64,000 nucleotides of DNA from an uncultured Candidatus Saccharibacteria bacterium (GTDB taxonomy: Bacteria; Patescibacteriota; Minisyncoccia; Phycocordibacterales; DATDWN01), in the NCBI GenBank assembly GCA_964391455.1, contig CAYMJQ010000003.1, positions 12,435 to 76,434 on the forward strand, in the 5' to 3' direction. Shown here in pieces: positions 4,520 to 54,498 of this stretch. A program made the translations under genes and the position numbers. The notes under the pieces were generated by a model. The model did not search any database. It was not told where the DNA came from and worked only from the letters and a program-made list of their open reading frames with translations. Positions within the stretch are counted from its first letter, which is position 1, and every line of letters starts with the position of its first letter.

Positions 4520-5782
4520 TTACAAAATACTTACTGCATCATCCACCGACAAAATCTCCGCATCTGATTTTGTTCTATGCTTTACTTCTATTTTATTTTC
4601 TGCAACTGTTTTATCGCTAACTACAAACCTAACCGGAATACCGATTAAGTCCGAATCAGCAAATTTTTCCCCTGGTCTTACATCCCTATCGTCATAAAGA
4701 ACTTCCACACCTTTATTTTTTAAATCATTATAAAGATTGTCTGCATATTTTATAGTCTCTTCATTTGTTCCTAGTCTAACTAAATGAACATGAAAAGGAG
4801 CAACTTCTTTTGGCCAAATAATACCCTTGTCATCTGAAAGTGTCTCAACAATAGTTCCAAGTAATCTAGTTGGTCCTATACCATAACTACCCATAACCAC
4901 AGGTACTTCAACCCCTCCCTCATTTTTATATTTTAATCCTATAGCATCAGAAAACCTAGTGCCCAAATGAAAAATATTCCCAACTTCAACTGCTTTTTTT
5001 TCTACTAATTCATCCTTTTTTATATCTAGTTTATTTAAATTTTCATCTGTATAAACTTCTTTATTTAAAGCAATTCTTTTATTCTCATGAACGTAAATAA
5101 TATCTTCTCCTGAATCAGTTATTGTTTGAAATTCCTCAGAAAAATCTGAGAAAATTCCTCCGGAAGCATAAGTTATATAAGTTTTTTCTCCAATACCTAA
5201 TCTATCAAAAACCTTAAGATATGCACTCCTTACTTTTCCATAATCCTCCAAGTGAGATTCATTATCCTTTGAAAAAGTATAAAGGTCTTTCATTAGAAAC
5301 TCCTTACCTCTCATTACCCCGCTTTTTGCTCTTAATTCATTTCTAAATTTATTCTGAAATTGATAAGCAAATACTGGTAAATCTCTGTAAGAAAAAATAT
5401 GCTCAGTCATAATTCTAGTTAAAGGTTCTTCATGAGTTATACCCAAACCGGTTTCTCCTCCACTTTTTAGTTCGGTCTTAAACCAATTATCAACTTTTGC
5501 ATCGTCCCATCTATCAGTTTTTGTCCAAAGATCTTTGTCTTGAAGAGCTGACATAAACAATTCTTGTCCACCAATATTATTCATCTCCTCACGAATAATT
5601 TTTACTATATTATTCAATGTTTTTAATCCAAGTGGTAAGTAAGAATAAACCCCGGCTAATTCTTTGTGAATAAAACCTGCTTTTATTAAAAACTGTGCAT
5701 TTTTAGAAGTTTCATCTGAAGGCAGTTCCTTTCTTGTTTTTGTAAAAAGTTGTGACTGTTTCATAATATTTAGTACCTTCAT
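4520..5782 (-). CDS. proS: prolyl-tRNA synthetase, minimal bacterial-type form without a large insertion/editing domain
   Basis: 420 aa with class II aaRS motifs and a ProRS anticodon-binding C-terminal domain (LGTNEETIKYADNLYNDLKNKGVEV...). It is preceded by a GAAGG ribosome-binding site. Confidence 0.85.
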   Translation of the reverse strand: MKVLNIMKQSQLFTKTRKELPSDETSKNAQFLIKAGFIHKELAGVYSYLPLGLKTLNNIVKIIREEMNNIGGQELFMSALQDKDLWTKTDRWDDAKVDNWFKTELKSGGETGLGITHEEPLTRIMTEHIFSYRDLPVFAYQFQNKFRNELRAKSGVMRGKEFLMKDLYTFSKDNESHLEDYGKVRSAYLKVFDRLGIGEKTYITYASGGIFSDFSEEFQTITDSGEDIIYVHENKRIALNKEVYTDENLNKLDIKKDELVEKKAVEVGNIFHLGTRFSDAIGLKYKNEGGVEVPVVMGSYGIGPTRLLGTIVETLSDDKGIIWPKEVAPFHVHLVRLGTNEETIKYADNLYNDLKNKGVEVLYDDRDVRPGEKFADSDLIGIPVRFVVSDKTVAENKIEVKHRTKSDAEILSVDDAVSIL

Positions 5783-5823
5783 AGTATCTTAAAAAGAAAA
5801 TTTGAGCAAAATATAAATTAAAA

Positions 5824-5902
5824 GGGCCTCCAAATACTCACAATCAATCTTATAAGAAATAAAATTATTTCTCAAAAGATTCTGTGTCTATTTGAAGGCC
5901 CA
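5824..5902 (-). terminator. intrinsic terminator T2 in proS leader
   Basis: gggcctccaaata (5824-5836) pairs with tatttgaaggccc (5890-5902). An inner hairpin agaaataa/ttatttct is present, and the minus-strand RNA ends in UUUU. Confidence 0.55.
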
Positions 5903-5923
5903 GTGTCGCCATGTATCTAGAGT

Positions 5924-5959
5924 CTAAAAACTCGCACCTCCAGATTCTGGTACAGTGCG
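5924..5959 (-). terminator. intrinsic terminator T1 in proS leader
   Basis: Minus-strand CGCACUGUACCAGAAUCUGGAGGUGCG followed by AGUUUUUAG. Confidence 0.5.
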
Positions 5960-6104
5960 GTAGAATTTATGTACCACTCCAGAATACCAACGACTTCGGT
6001 ATGACAACCTTTTTTTACTTATCCTGTTACTCTGTCCTGAGTCAGGCAAGGTTGGGTCCGAAAACTTAATTTCTACATGCACCATAGAATAAAAATGATA
6101 AAAA

Positions 6105-6300
6105 GTCAAAAAAGGCCGCTCATTTCTGAGCGGCCACCCTGTGGGGGAAATACAATGCAAGTTGGAAGCGGAAGACCGTTCCAGCGGGGTTTTCACCCTT
6201 TGCCCAAGGGAGAAGCATCAGCTCCTGGAGGTAGCTGGCTCCATCAAACCCGGGGGGAGGACTGGAAACAGCACTCCCGCTTCCGACATATTTATATCAT
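6105..6300 (-). ncRNA. candidate structured small RNA (about 190 nt) with its own intrinsic terminator; identity unknown, with an SRP-RNA-like helix motif as one possibility
   Basis: Minus-strand RNA: GGAAGCGG...CCGCUUCC closes a roughly 125-nt domain with internal hairpins CAGCU/AGCUG, CCCUU/AAGGG and GGGU/ACCC. It contains GUGCUGUUUCCAG, which resembles the SRP RNA GUGCUGUUUACCAGG. It ends with GGCCGCUCAGAAAUGAGCGGCC + U6 (plus 6112-6136). The region is visibly GC-rich, and the 90-aa and 76-aa track ORFs here look spurious. Confidence 0.4.
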
Positions 6301-6328
6301 AAATTGAAAAATAAAGCAAATCAAAAAA

Positions 6329-7426
6329 CTACAAAAGTTTTAATATATCTTTTGTTGTAACTATAAGCATAAGCAACATAAGAAGAGCAAAACCGGTAAC
6401 ATTAGCCCACTTAACCACATTTGGATTTATCGGCCTTCTTATTATGGCTTCTATTAGTACAAACAGTAGTCTCCCTCCGTCTAGTGCTGGAAATGGAACC
6501 AAATTGATAACTGCTAAATTAATAGAAATTATTGCGGTTATAGAAAGTAGATATCTAAAACCTAATTCGTTTGCTTCTTTTACGATACTGGCAATACCAA
6601 CAGGTCCAGTTACTTGAGAAAAATCTGATCTTAAAGTAATAGTTTCAAATAAGAATTTTGATAATCCAACAGTCGTAGCTTTTAACAAATACCAAGTGGT
6701 TTTAGCTCCAGTTAAAAGTGAATCTATAGCTGAAAGTTTTAATGTCCCTATCCATTCCATAGATATACCTAACACCCTTCTTCCTGGAATTATATCCGTT
6801 GTTGGAGTTATGCTTACTTGCCTTTCAGTGCCATTCTCACTAGAAATTTTCAAAATCAAATCTTTAGATGTTGATTCTGAAATATATTTTTGAACAACTT
6901 CAGGATAAAGTTCTTTATCCAAAACCTCACTTCCTCCAGATATAGCAAGTATCGTCTCTCCTGGTTTTAGACCGGATTTAAAAGCTGGAGAGTCTGGCAA
7001 AACTTCAGTAATTATCAGTCTAGCATCATTAAAATCCCCCATAGTATTTGATGGTAAAACAGAAGTGGTGCCAAGAAAAAAACCTAGTGAAATAATCAAC
7101 CAAGCAAATATTAAATTAAAAGTAACTCCAGCTAGCAACACTAAAGCTTGTATCCATTTAGGTTTATAAACAAAACTTACTCCTTTGTTTTCTTCACTTA
7201 TTTCACCACTATGAGCATCTTCACCGAATATTTTTACAAAACCACCGAAAGGTATAACATTTAGTGTATAAAGAGTTCCCCCCCATTTTTTACTTAAAAT
7301 TTTAGGAGGAAATCCAATTGCGAACTCATCTACTCTTATCCCAGACTTTTTAGCAACAAGAAAATGACCTAACTCATGGACAAAAATCAACACCGCCAAA
7401 ATTATTAAAAATATTATTATACTCAA
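6329..7426 (-). CDS. rseP: RIP metalloprotease RseP (site-2 protease) with PDZ domain
   Basis: 365 aa with the HELGHFLVAKKSG HExxH motif in a TM helix, a PDZ-like middle domain and a C-terminal LDGG motif. Confidence 0.85.
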   Translation of the reverse strand: MSIIIFLIILAVLIFVHELGHFLVAKKSGIRVDEFAIGFPPKILSKKWGGTLYTLNVIPFGGFVKIFGEDAHSGEISEENKGVSFVYKPKWIQALVLLAGVTFNLIFAWLIISLGFFLGTTSVLPSNTMGDFNDARLIITEVLPDSPAFKSGLKPGETILAISGGSEVLDKELYPEVVQKYISESTSKDLILKISSENGTERQVSITPTTDIIPGRRVLGISMEWIGTLKLSAIDSLLTGAKTTWYLLKATTVGLSKFLFETITLRSDFSQVTGPVGIASIVKEANELGFRYLLSITAIISINLAVINLVPFPALDGGRLLFVLIEAIIRRPINPNVVKWANVTGFALLMLLMLIVTTKDILKLL

Positions 7427-16777: not shown

Positions 16778-16914
16778 GTTGCTATTAAAAGAGAATTAGA
16801 ACTTTCGGGGATTTTAGGTATATCTTATTTTCAAACTGCTTCAGAACTAGTGTAAAAACAGAATCGCCCAACGAGGTCGGGCGACCTGTTGAGCGATGAT
16901 AGAGAAACGGGAAG

Positions 16915-17265
16915 TTACTTCTTTGCACGGGACGTTCTGGAACGAAAGGACAGTTCTTCCTTGCTGAACTGGATGTGATGGGTGTTTTCAATGATAGTCC
17001 TGCGTTTCGCACCCTTGTCGACATTCCACTGTCGCAATCCTTTGCGACGCCCAACACGAAGCCCTTTGGTTTTCTCGTCGCAATATTTCATCACACACTT
17101 CGCGACGTGTTTTGGAAGTGTGTGCAAACAACTTCCATCACAAGGACCGATGACAATGTGCTCATCTGCCATTCGGTTTACGTAGTTGTAGTGGGAAACG
17201 TGGATTTCACCATTGATACAGAACTGGTCTCCCCATTCTTCACGACTAATCAGAGTTGCTTTCAC
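16915..17265 (-). CDS. hypothetical 116-aa Cys/His-rich protein (island gene G), a possible zinc-finger or HNH-like nuclease fold
   Basis: GTG start with GGGAGG 5 nt upstream. A TTGACT-17-TATTAT promoter at 17294-17322 lies 2 nt from att repeat A2. The protein carries C16, HVSHYN, GPCDGSCLH, KHVAKC, KYC and NTHHI clusters and a basic C-terminal tail. Confidence 0.5.
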   Translation of the reverse strand: MKATLISREEWGDQFCINGEIHVSHYNYVNRMADEHIVIGPCDGSCLHTLPKHVAKCVMKYCDEKTKGLRVGRRKGLRQWNVDKGAKRRTIIENTHHIQFSKEELSFRSRTSRAKK

Positions 17266-17293
17266 TAAACACCTCCCTTCAAATCTAAATTAG

Positions 17294-17493: not shown

Positions 17494-17565
17494 CTCCGGC
17501 GGTAGGGATCGAACCTACGACCAATCGATTAACAGTCGATTGCTCTACCACTGAGCTACACCGGA
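17494..17565 (-). tRNA. tRNA-Asn (anticodon GTT)
   Basis: The minus-strand read is TCCGGTGTAGCTCAGTGGTAGAGCAATCGACTGTTAATCGATTGGTCGTAGGTTCGATCCCTACCGCCGGAG. It has a 7-bp acceptor stem, a D-arm AGCTCAGTGGTAGAGC, an anticodon loop CUGUUAA and a T-arm GTAGGTTCGATCCCTAC. CCA is not encoded. Confidence 0.85.
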
Positions 17566-17745
17566 ATGTTTAAGCTCAGGACCACTGGCCACAAGTTAAA
17601 ATCTGCTGATTTTACTCGCGACCCCTCCTCGCCCCCGTCTCGGGCTCCGGCCTTGCGAAGTAAAAACATCACTTCTCACTACACCGGAATAAATAGATAA
17701 TACCAAAAATATAGAGGAAAGCAACAATTTTATACTTACTCTGTA

Positions 17746-25978: not shown

Positions 25979-26012
25979 GTCTCGAGTTGTCACAACAACT
26001 CGAGACTTTTTG
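25979..26012. terminator. bidirectional terminator (gtctcgagttg / caactcgagac + ttttt)
   Basis: An 11-bp stem. Confidence 0.65.
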
Positions 26013-26023
26013 GATCTTGGGAA

Positions 26024-26329
26024 CTACCTTCTCTCAGCGAGAGAAAGTGGATTGGCAATCCTTTCTCCAGGAAGGATCGTCTCAGGGTGAATCTTTTCGA
26101 CAAGCTCCAGCATAACGCCGACGGTAGCAGTGCCGAGCTCTGGCTCACAGGAAAGAGCGAGGTCTTTCAGAACTTGCTTTTCCAGACGACCAGCATGACC
26201 AGTCGTGACCTCGATGATGTCTTGTTTCGACATTCCAGTTCTTTCTCCGAGAAGAGTCTTGGAACCGACTCTCACTGCCGCTCGGTGAACAAGAACACCG
26301 AACTCTGCAGAAGCAAACCTATTTGTCAT
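26024..26329 (-). CDS. hypothetical GC-rich 101-aa protein with probable HTH (sigma-70 region-4-like) segment
   Basis: Starts MTNRFASAEF... with GGGAGG 4 nt upstream. The HTH-like segment is LGERTGMSKQDIIEVTTGHAGRLEKQ. It lies directly after the atpC terminator and is GC-richer than its neighbours. Confidence 0.5.
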   Translation of the reverse strand: MTNRFASAEFGVLVHRAAVRVGSKTLLGERTGMSKQDIIEVTTGHAGRLEKQVLKDLALSCEPELGTATVGVMLELVEKIHPETILPGERIANPLSLAERR

Positions 26330-26408
26330 CTTGCCTCCCAAAAGGAACAAAAACCCCGACCATCGGGGCTATTAATAATTAAACCTAATCCAAGTGTATT
26401 TTGCAATA

Positions 26409-35688: not shown

Positions 35689-35739
35689 AAGATTTAGTAT
35701 ACCAGCACAATAAAACTTAACAAAATTAAGCACAAAAAA

Positions 35740-35858
35740 ACTGGTGGGGAGGTTTGCAGTCCCTCCCTAACCAGTCTTGACGAGCCCCTGTGTACTCGTC
35801 GGCCGGCGGGTCTGCCGCCATTAAAGGGTCACGGTGTAGGTGTGACTCATAAAAGTCA
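35740..35858. other. GC-rich structured non-coding element with four hairpins and mutually exclusive gtcac/gtgac/gtcac pairings
   Basis: The hairpins are actggt...accagt (35740-35775), gacgag...ctcgtc (35779-35800), ggcgg...ccgcc (35805-35819) and gtcac...gtgac (35828-35846), with an alternative gtgac...gtcac pairing (35842-35858). The element sits in the divergent region between the exonuclease and the DsbA-like gene. Confidence 0.35.
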
Positions 35859-35993
35859 CCTTCCTTTCCCAAATCGTAAACCTAGGAAATCTAGGCTACT
35901 TCTCAATTATAACATATGTAAAAATAATAATCAACTAATACAAGGTCTGCTTGAAAATTGCATCTAAATCGATTCCCTAGTAGAATAGGCGTT

Positions 35994-39726: not shown

Positions 39727-40383
39727 TCAGATCGCTGAGGCGAATTCCTCCGCAGCCGCTCTCACCTCGTCGGCGATCCGCGTATCTTTCTCAGCCTGTT
39801 CGCGACGCCTCTCTTCTGGCGTCTTTTCAACGAGAAGCTCGACTCTCGCCTTCTGCTTCTTGGAAGCCTTGCCGAGCCTGGCAAGCATGCGGGCATTGGC
39901 ATCCCGCGCCTCCTGAAGTCTGGGAGCTTCCTCGATAGAATCGAGAAGATCCCAGTAGAGACGGCTGAGTTCGTTGAGATCGAACTCGTCGAGCAGCCGA
40001 GTGCTCTCAACCGCCTCCTTGAAGAGATTGAATTTCTTCATGAGGCCGTCATAGATGTCCTGGTCCACGAGCTGGGCCACCATGCGGAGCTTGTTCGGGA
40101 AAAAGTTCTCCACCGAGCGAATGGCGTAGAACTTTTGACTGTTCCGGAGTGAACGAAGTGCCTTCACTGCGCCATTGAAGGCAAACAGGAAGGACATCAC
40201 CCCGAACGCCCGGACTGAATCGAGGTAAAGTATCTTGATCTCATCCTTTACCTTGAAATTCATGAATCGGGCTCGAGTCTTGCCACTGTCACCAGTGGCA
40301 ATCTTTACCTCTGCTAGGAAGGCACGGAAAACACCCTCCACCTCCTGCCGAGTCGGGATCTTCTTCACCTTCTTCTTGTCCAT
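39727..40383 (-). CDS. hypothetical 218-aa protein encoded by a strongly GC-rich gene with its own consensus promoter and terminator
   Basis: Starts MDKKKVKKIPTRQ... with GGGAGG 5 nt upstream. The C-terminal half is an E/R/A-rich coiled coil. Codon usage is unlike its neighbours. Confidence 0.55.
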   Translation of the reverse strand: MDKKKVKKIPTRQEVEGVFRAFLAEVKIATGDSGKTRARFMNFKVKDEIKILYLDSVRAFGVMSFLFAFNGAVKALRSLRNSQKFYAIRSVENFFPNKLRMVAQLVDQDIYDGLMKKFNLFKEAVESTRLLDEFDLNELSRLYWDLLDSIEEAPRLQEARDANARMLARLGKASKKQKARVELLVEKTPEERRREQAEKDTRIADEVRAAAEEFASAI

Positions 40384-40427
40384 TGTCGCCTCCCAGCAAT
40401 ACGCCACGAAATGTGACTAAATTGCTC

Positions 40428-54116: not shown

Positions 54117-54173
54117 CAGTCAATAAAGACAAAACTAAAACTGTGGAAAACTAATTTTTAATATTTTAAAAAC

Positions 54174-54202
54174 TTGACATTTAACTTGATATATGCTACT
54201 AT
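54174..54202 (+). promoter_or_regulatory. sigma70-consensus promoter TTGACA-17-TACTAT of GC-rich cassette
   Basis: TTGACAtttaacttgatatatgcTACTAT. AGGAGG lies 7 nt before the ATG at 54223. Confidence 0.5.
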
Positions 54203-54222
54203 TAAGGATAGGAGGATAACAC

Positions 54223-54441
54223 ATGCCGAGTCCGAACTCGACCCGCTCCCGGCTTTGCAACCGGGAGAAAACCCGCGGTTTCCAGACCGCGGGCCACCAC
54301 ACGGTGAATATGTTTGGCGCGACGCCGACCATGTTCACGGACCAGCCGTGGCGGGACCCTCGGGTCCCCCGGCTGAAGAGCTTCAGCTCGGACAGGAGCT
54401 ACCTGCTCCCGTCCGAGTACAAGATCGAGGTGAGCCACTAG
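54223..54441 (+). CDS. 72-codon ORF in extremely GC-rich cassette; a protein-coding versus structured-RNA role is unresolved
   Basis: The product MPSPNSTRSRLCNREKTRGF...YKIEVSH has a strong SD. The region also carries six perfect hairpins, including a 14-bp stem that holds the stop codon in its loop. Confidence 0.35.
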   Translation: MPSPNSTRSRLCNREKTRGFQTAGHHTVNMFGATPTMFTDQPWRDPRVPRLKSFSSDRSYLLPSEYKIEVSH

Positions 54442-54459
54442 GCTCACCTCGATCACGCA

Positions 54460-54498
54460 GGCCGACCCACTTCAGAGAGCGGGTCGGCCTTTTCATTT
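54460..54498 (+). terminator. intrinsic terminator (ggccgaccc ... gggtcggcc + tttt)
   Basis: A 9-bp GC stem with a 12-nt loop and a T-run. It is preceded by a second perfect hairpin at 54423-54454. Confidence 0.65.

Follow-up and report, generated by a model that had tools for sequence, protein, structure and literature searches.

Boundaries of an RNA gene between rseP and proS

The analysed stretch of DNA, 64,000 nt long and called the window below, carries rseP and proS one after the other on its minus strand. In the spacer between them, positions 6284 to 6108 (minus strand) are, as judged from the sequence signals, a gene for a separately transcribed structured small RNA of about 177 nt with predicted ends. 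We refer to this RNA and its homologues as the A-type RNA. Its promoter is of the sigma-70 type with an extended -10 element, and lies directly after the rseP stop codon (Table 1). A promoter consensus scan chose the overlapping TTGATT-17-TATGAT rather than TTGCTT-17-TG-A-TATAAA. Among the homologues compared, 11 of 12 have TGnTATAAAT at a fixed distance of 5-7 nt upstream of the closing stem. With the promoter at 6319-6291, the RNA probably starts at about 6284 and not at 6300, so that of the extent given by the original prediction (6105-6300, about 190 nt) the terminator end stands and the start moves inwards.

The other elements of the original prediction for this region are largely borne out. 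GC content across the A-type region is 52-62% in 100-nt windows, compared with 33% for the whole window, and the minimum free energy (MFE) of the fold is -86.6 kcal/mol against -62.8 ± 4.7 kcal/mol in 200 dinucleotide shuffles (z = -5.0, 0/200 as stable). Together with compensatory changes in 12 homologous loci, this agrees with the claim of a structured small RNA with its own terminator after rseP. The two arms said to close a GC-rich domain are present as GGAAGCGG (6284-6277) and CCGCUUCC (6171-6164) on the minus strand and enclose a domain of 121 nt; the terminator followed by U6 and the next promoter, TTGACT with TATGGT 17 nt on, also lie where they had been placed. The -35 element of that promoter overlaps the A-type U tract, and relatives repeat this overlap as TTTTTGAC or TTTTGCTC.

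Table 1 Coordinates of the A-type RNA, its flanking elements and the tandem units of related loci.
Feature	Position	Strand	Description
rseP stop codon	6331-6329	-	A-type promoter begins ~10 nt after
A-type RNA promoter	6291-6319	-	-35 TTGCTT 6319-6314, 17-nt spacer, extended -10 TG-A-TATAAA 6299-6291
Predicted primary A-type transcript, ~177 nt	6108-6284	-	Conserved promoter and terminator, GC island, fold z = -5.0
P1 5' strand, closing stem	6262-6284	-	GGAAGCGGGAGUGCUGUUUCCAG; MFE and RNAalifold consensus
J1/2, unpaired, C-rich	6255-6261	-	UCCUCCC; unpaired in MFE and subgroup consensus
P2, long irregular hairpin	6203-6254	-	CCC/GGG base-pair block; RNAalifold consensus of window, L170 and L085
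J2/3	6202-6199	-	CAAA; precedes P3
P3, short hairpin	6187-6198	-	GGGU-GAAA-ACCC; RNAalifold subgroup consensus, GGGU-NNNN-ACCC in subgroup
P1 3' strand, closing stem	6164-6184	-	CUGGAACGGUCUUCCGCUUCC; RNAalifold consensus, pair counts
Unpaired linker	6148-6163	-	AACUUGCAUUGUAUUU with semi-conserved (C/U)UUG(U/C)A, just 3' of P1 in 11/13 members
Single-stranded C-rich motif	6140-6147	-	CCCCCACA (CCCCACA), between P1 and terminator
Intrinsic terminator	6108-6135	-	Hairpin GGCCGCUCAGAAAUGAGCGGCC (6135-6114): 9-bp stem, 7 G-C pairs, 4-nt loop; then U6 (6113-6108)
Promoter of next unit	6081-6109	-	TTGACT (6109-6104)-17-TATGGT; -35 overlaps A-type U tract
D-type structured RNA unit	5812-6109	-	Own promoter TTGACT-17-TATGGT, long terminator hairpin 5901-5824
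proS promoter	5781-5809	-	TTGCTC 5809-5804, TACTAT 5786-5781
Tandem spacer units	L085 3096-4125		Promoter- and terminator-bounded
Tandem spacer units	L081 3096-3900		Promoter- and terminator-bounded
Tandem spacer units	L088 2814-3290		Promoter- and terminator-bounded
Tandem spacer units	L179 2893-3355		Promoter- and terminator-bounded
Tandem spacer units	L178 2908-3355		Promoter- and terminator-bounded
Tandem spacer units	L006 3681-4019		Promoter- and terminator-bounded

Conserved across many Parcubacteria, a promoter motif precedes proS, reading TTTTGCTCAAAA or TTTTGACCC and then TAGTAT or GATACTAT, a few bases before the start codon. It is found directly after rseP in relatives with a gap of 30-100 nt and, wherever RNA units are inserted, downstream of all of them, which identifies it as the promoter of proS. 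By its sequence, it is predicted often to yield a leaderless or near-leaderless mRNA. Since the insertion site of the RNA units lies after the end of rseP and before this promoter, they are not proS leaders.

This position also decides the nature of the stretch at 5800-6100, which the original prediction had named the proS leader. It is bounded by its own promoter and terminator, and because the conserved proS promoter lies downstream of that terminator, 5812-6109 is a second independent structured RNA unit, which we call the D-type. Across the whole alignment it shares 64-66% identity with its counterparts in L085, L081, L170 and L278, its conserved 5' part of 181 nt reaches up to 80% identity to relatives' copies, and 17 of its 72 predicted pairs show compensatory changes. 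No Rfam match was obtained for it, and no match to the T-box model (RF00230) at E ≤ 10. A T-box or riboswitch leader of proS at 5800-6100 was rejected on the absence of a covariance-model match and the position of the proS promoter after the unit's terminator. The T-box-like string GUGGUAC...ACCGC of the D-type unit was likewise set aside: it forms a covarying hairpin that reads GGAAC...GUUCC in L278.

Relatives stack up to four unrelated GC-rich RNA units in the rseP-proS spacer, each with a promoter and a terminator. The order is A-B-C-D in L085, B-C-D in L081 and A-B' in L088, L178 and L179, and none of these stacks gave an Rfam match. As in the window, the U tract of each terminator in the tandem units overlaps the -35 of the next unit. 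In the C-type unit, a GGAAGUAAGGGGAC loop is conserved, and UCCUCC, which is similar to an anti-Shine-Dalgarno sequence, forms the loop of a hairpin.

Fold and covariation of the A-type family

In the subgroup consensus obtained with RNAalifold from the window, L170 and L085, the A-type RNA folds into a three-way junction of stems P1, P2 and P3; other subgroups form three- or four-way junctions. The 5' end of the RNA pairs in P1 with a segment about 100 nt downstream, and across members this closing stem of 10-24 pairs begins at the first transcribed bases. In the upper part of P2 the sequence varies among the three subgroup members while pairing is maintained. The junction strand J1/2 contains CCUCC, which is anti-Shine-Dalgarno-like; it is C-rich in the window, L170 and L085 and is not kept family-wide. 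A G-rich core of the form GGG-CAAA-GGG (GGGCAAAGGG, GGGUUAGAGGG, GUGGUAGGGG and similar) occurs in 10 of the 13 members and maps in the subgroup model to the P2 3' strand, J2/3 and the P3 5' strand.

Downstream of P1, an unpaired linker of 25-60 nt carries UUGUA and CCCCACA. Between P1 and the terminator, 10/13 members have C2-5AC[A/G] and the remaining 3/13 have repeated CCACCC, and the window contains this C-rich motif-plus-terminator unit only once. All members have a homologous terminator, whose loop often reads CCUSACYAG. Inspection by eye revealed neither a pseudoknot of the C-rich tail with the G-rich core nor an antiterminator pairing between P1 and the terminator that would be consistent across members.

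The family comprises 13 members including that of the window, all located after the rseP stop codon and before the proS promoter; the 12 homologues are those of L001, L003, L085, L086, L088, L170, L171, L173, L175, L178, L179 and L278. By its RseP homologues, the window comes from a member of the Parcubacteria, a lineage of the CPR bacteria. The rseP-proS order is widely kept in 80 representative genomes, with gaps from 0 to more than 1000 nt. Searches of the loci of these 80 genomes with the A-type element by blastn and nhmmer gave no match, and the homologues were found through synteny alone because the sequence diverges too fast for these tools. The window RNA is 53-58% identical to the two closest members of its subgroup, which are 73% identical to each other, and the interior, 54-135 nt long among members, is strongly divergent in sequence. 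As far as sampled, the family is seen solely in a Parcubacteria subclade in which RseP shares at least about 58% identity with that of the window. Its presence there is patchy: between rseP and proS, the site to which this statement applies, it is absent in the equally close relatives L002, L004 and L081 (relatives' loci span 3-8 kb each). A metagenome scan with an RseP peptide pattern returned, among the matches listed, only relatives of at most 51% identity. Viral contigs were scanned with two patterns, of which one yielded 98 unrelated promoter-like matches, including a recurring phage 5' hairpin, and the other none.

The original prediction had proposed covariation in homologous loci as a check, and P1 provides it. 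Pairs were counted on constructs with the interior excised because MAFFT on full-length members misaligned the P1 3' strand, and the alignment was assembled by hand, with UUGUA just downstream of P1 as an independent anchor. Over the first 11 pairs in 12 sequences, 93.9% of the cells are paired, a count that leans towards pairing because the 3' strands were chosen from MFE partners, compared with 42-53% after a shift of the 3' partner by 1-3 columns. Changes on both sides are found in 10 of the 11 pairs, and no measure attains its observed value in any of 500 shuffles. Trained on the window, L170 and L085, a covariance model finds the L001 member in full length (30.4 bits, E = 2.6e-5), which links the two subgroups by structure plus sequence; the same model recovers the remaining subgroups weakly.

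Known families, proposed role and alternatives

Rfam 15 at the gathering score identified only a tRNA-Asn in the 64-kb window, and nothing was added at E ≤ 1 over the whole window. At E ≤ 10 on 5700-6450 (751 nt), only terminator look-alikes and microRNA noise appeared, with no SRP, 6S, RNase P, tmRNA, T-box or riboswitch match; the search for SRP_bact, 6S, RNase P and tmRNA that had been suggested as a check was therefore negative. The same holds for 18 related loci, which gave no match to SRP or another RNA family, and for the four-unit spacer of L085, which gave no match, T-box being absent at E ≤ 5. ARAGORN detected no tmRNA or tRNA-like gene in the spacers. Full-text literature searches for small RNAs (sRNAs) of Parcubacteria and other CPR bacteria returned no prior description of such RNAs. 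TIGR-Tas systems reportedly consist of 36-nt repeat arrays adjoining the Tas protein, unlike the rseP-proS locus. A novel family, with no match in Rfam 15 and no description in the literature searched, fits best, which is the option that the original prediction had left as its last.

By analogy, the A-type RNA may be closest in function to the RsaE/RoxS-type sRNAs with C-rich motifs and in architecture to the 6S and Y RNAs. Like RsaE/RoxS (RF01820) and the Staphylococcus 'UCCC-motif' sRNAs, it stands alone with a sigma-70-type promoter, an intrinsic terminator and no ORF, has an unpaired C-rich motif adjoining the terminator (CCCCACA or repeated CCACCC, in all 13 members) and belongs to an AT-rich genome. 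Hfq is often absent in its host group. Unlike these sRNAs, it shows no sequence or covariance-model similarity (no RF01820 match), is about twice as long, has a large junction domain that its 5' end closes and carries CCCCACA where they have UCCC or CCCC in hairpin loops; nor did the 64-kb window yield G-rich start sites complementary to it. With 6S RNA (RF00013) it shares small size and stability, a long irregular closing stem of 5' and 3' segments and a structure preserved despite low sequence conservation. It differs in having no covariance-model match to RF00013, a three-way junction core with a 7-8 nt unpaired 5' junction strand instead of the central bubble and terminal stem of a rod-like fold, a terminator and a 3' tail that is single-stranded and conserved, and a patchy distribution. 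Y RNA and YrlA-type RNAs resemble it in that both ends form a long stem capping a variable multi-helix module; for the A-type RNA, however, no Rfam match, no tRNA-like module and no Ro (Rsr) gene near the locus were detected.

The explanation that we favour, with a probability of about 0.5, is that the A-type RNA is the product of a stand-alone structured sRNA gene, not a proS leader, which acts in trans through its unpaired C-rich motif. In such a mechanism, CCCCACA would be the functional contact, either pairing with G-rich sites on other RNAs, in the manner of the C-rich-motif sRNAs of Firmicutes, or being bound by a protein. The covarying 5' domain would serve as a scaffold and not as a ligand-binding aptamer. 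In this domain P1 caps a P2/P3 three-way junction whose sequence and length change fast between species, and the strong terminator further downstream ends in a U tract shared with the -35 of the next transcription unit. The presence of the G-rich junction core in 10/13 members hints that the 5' domain may itself be functional.

Target searches in the window gave no candidate. On its gene-rich strand, the 64-kb window contains four copies of UGUGGGG, the complement of CCCCACA, none of them near a start codon; the best duplex of the tail with the 98 translation-initiation regions of the window has -20.7 kcal/mol, against a mean minimum of -22.8 kcal/mol for shuffled tails; and no conserved complement to the tail is seen around the starts of holB, frr and rseP, the genes linked to the RNA. 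In many genes of the clade (in L170, L085, L086, L088, L171, L175 and others; holB, frr and proS), a TATAAT-like -10 lies only 6-8 nt before the ATG, which implies leaderless mRNAs. With several clade genes looking leaderless, a C-rich seed would have fewer Shine-Dalgarno sites to target. A pairing of the UUGUA linker with the conserved UUUACAAAA near the proS 5' end (about codon 7) was considered and rejected, as its 5-9 A/U-rich pairs were judged to be at chance level in an AT-rich genome.

Other accounts treat the locus as an RNA gene or element with a different role. The A-type RNA may instead be a protein-binding or scaffold RNA, a subunit of a ribonucleoprotein (RNP) or a decoy like 6S or Y RNA, in which the stem and junction core would be recognised and CCCCACA would be auxiliary; we regard this as a serious, though less likely, alternative. 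It would account for a closing stem of 11-24 bp that keeps capping a multi-helix junction while the sequence turns over, for the shared G-rich core, and for the failure to find a base-pairing target in the 64-kb window. Weighing against it are the lack of an Rfam match to 6S, Y RNA/YrlA or any RNP RNA, a consensus that is a junction instead of a rod with a central bubble, and a patchy presence at the rseP-proS site, which argues against a universal housekeeping role; the neighbour genes around A-type loci are frr, rseP, proS and mreB, and no candidate partner gene is linked to the RNA. A more elaborate version takes the rseP-proS spacer as a stacking site for unrelated, fast-evolving RNA genes A-D in head-to-tail order and the A-type RNA as the subunit or decoy of an undescribed RNP of CPR bacteria, a lineage-specific analogue of 6S or Y RNA with both CCCCACA and the junction core recognised by protein, and seems rather improbable to us. 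The constant position between rseP and proS, the strong terminator, and the fact that in 9/13 loci the next unit is proS or a second sRNA-like unit directly before it would fit a cis-acting element, that is, a riboswitch-like attenuator or insulating terminator governing how much transcription from rseP, or from the element's own promoter, continues into the next unit and proS. Such a role is unlikely, because proS has an independent conserved promoter, also used where no RNA is inserted, because no consistent antiterminator pairing of P1 and terminator is visible by eye, and because the interior is hypervariable, too much so for a ligand aptamer; relatives have as many as four such terminators in a row, and Rfam gave no riboswitch or T-box match.

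The favoured trans-acting sRNA must also be weighed against SRP or 6S RNA, both of which the original prediction had tentatively raised. A highly divergent SRP or 6S RNA overlooked by the Rfam models would suit the size, the GC richness and the structured character of the A-type RNA, and housekeeping RNAs of CPR bacteria are poorly studied. The string likened to the SRP helix-5 entry does exist (GUGCUGUUUCCAG, 13 nt, 6274-6262, with CUGG at 6184-6181, minus strand), but the likeness appears to be one of chance: the string is an inner part of the closing stem and becomes GAAUUCGUCCAG or GUGUACACAGAG in L170 and L085. Neither the SRP models (RF00169, RF01854) nor RF00013 match at the gathering score or at E ≤ 10 in the 751-nt query, nor in the 18 related loci. 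By inspection, none of the 13 members has the GNAR tetraloop or the loop motifs of domain IV; the original prediction had already remarked that the tetraloop was not evident, and the apical parts are the most variable regions of the members. An RNA missing from the rseP-proS site in close relatives, folding into a three-way junction and evolving much faster than expected for SRP RNA, is very unlikely to be either of the two. Still harder to credit is that the locus holds no RNA gene at all and is either a GC-rich ORF for a small protein or what is left of GC-rich DNA of foreign origin. The region is indeed crossed by ORFs of 90, 76 and 53 aa, and other GC-rich islands in the window are protein genes. 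Yet the three frames have no Pfam match and no Shine-Dalgarno or start-codon context, the longest ORF lies on different strands and in different frames in different homologues, the interiors differ in length by numbers not divisible by three, the changes are compensatory for base pairing, and the promoter and terminator precisely bracket the structure; the dismissal of the 90- and 76-aa ORFs as noise was sound.

Implications and further candidates in the window

Parcubacteria and other CPR bacteria have tiny genomes with few recognisable regulators, and to our knowledge almost no non-coding RNAs have been characterised in them. At least one Parcubacteria clade has well-defined sRNA genes without an Rfam match, each combining a canonical promoter, a covarying structure, a single-stranded motif and a terminator, and a single intergenic spacer stacks up to four different sRNA genes. 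If expressed, the A-type and stacked RNAs would suggest that organisms regarded as poor in regulation have a regulatory layer built on RNA. They are concrete candidates for metatranscriptomics and for family-wide covariance-model searches, and for annotation a tempting mislabel as SRP, 6S or T-box leader is removed.

At least two more candidates lie elsewhere in the 64-kb window. An sRNA-like candidate of 171 nt lies at 35735-35905 on the minus strand, with a TTGATT-17-TATAAT promoter, up to 63% GC, a fold z of -4.6, a terminator containing CCUCCCCACCAG and no Rfam match. On the plus strand, a unit of about 330 nt at 54168-54495 reaches 71% GC in this genome of 33% GC and has a TTGACA-type promoter and a terminator; it contains AGGAGG and an ATG at 54223, a 72-codon Arg-rich frame to 54441 and about seven near-perfect hairpins. 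This unit has no Rfam match and may encode either a small protein or a highly structured RNA.

Other GC-rich sequences were noted as well. In a related locus without proS (L009, 4950-5300), about 400-600 nt downstream of rseP, a segment of 60-71% GC has several long hairpins and a terminator. The 12-nt sequence CTACACCGGAAT lies over the 5' end of the tRNA-Asn gene (17494-17565, minus strand) and is repeated 123 nt away (17556, 17679), whereas none would be expected by chance; about 110 nt of GC-rich sequence separate the copies (region 17494-17690), and the repeat may be an integration scar or part of a co-transcribed structured RNA. Finally, the islands at 16835-17270, 26012-26350 and 39727-40407 (minus strand), with 54-62% GC and GGAGG Shine-Dalgarno sites, look like protein-coding genes and not RNAs, and their composition suggests a foreign origin.
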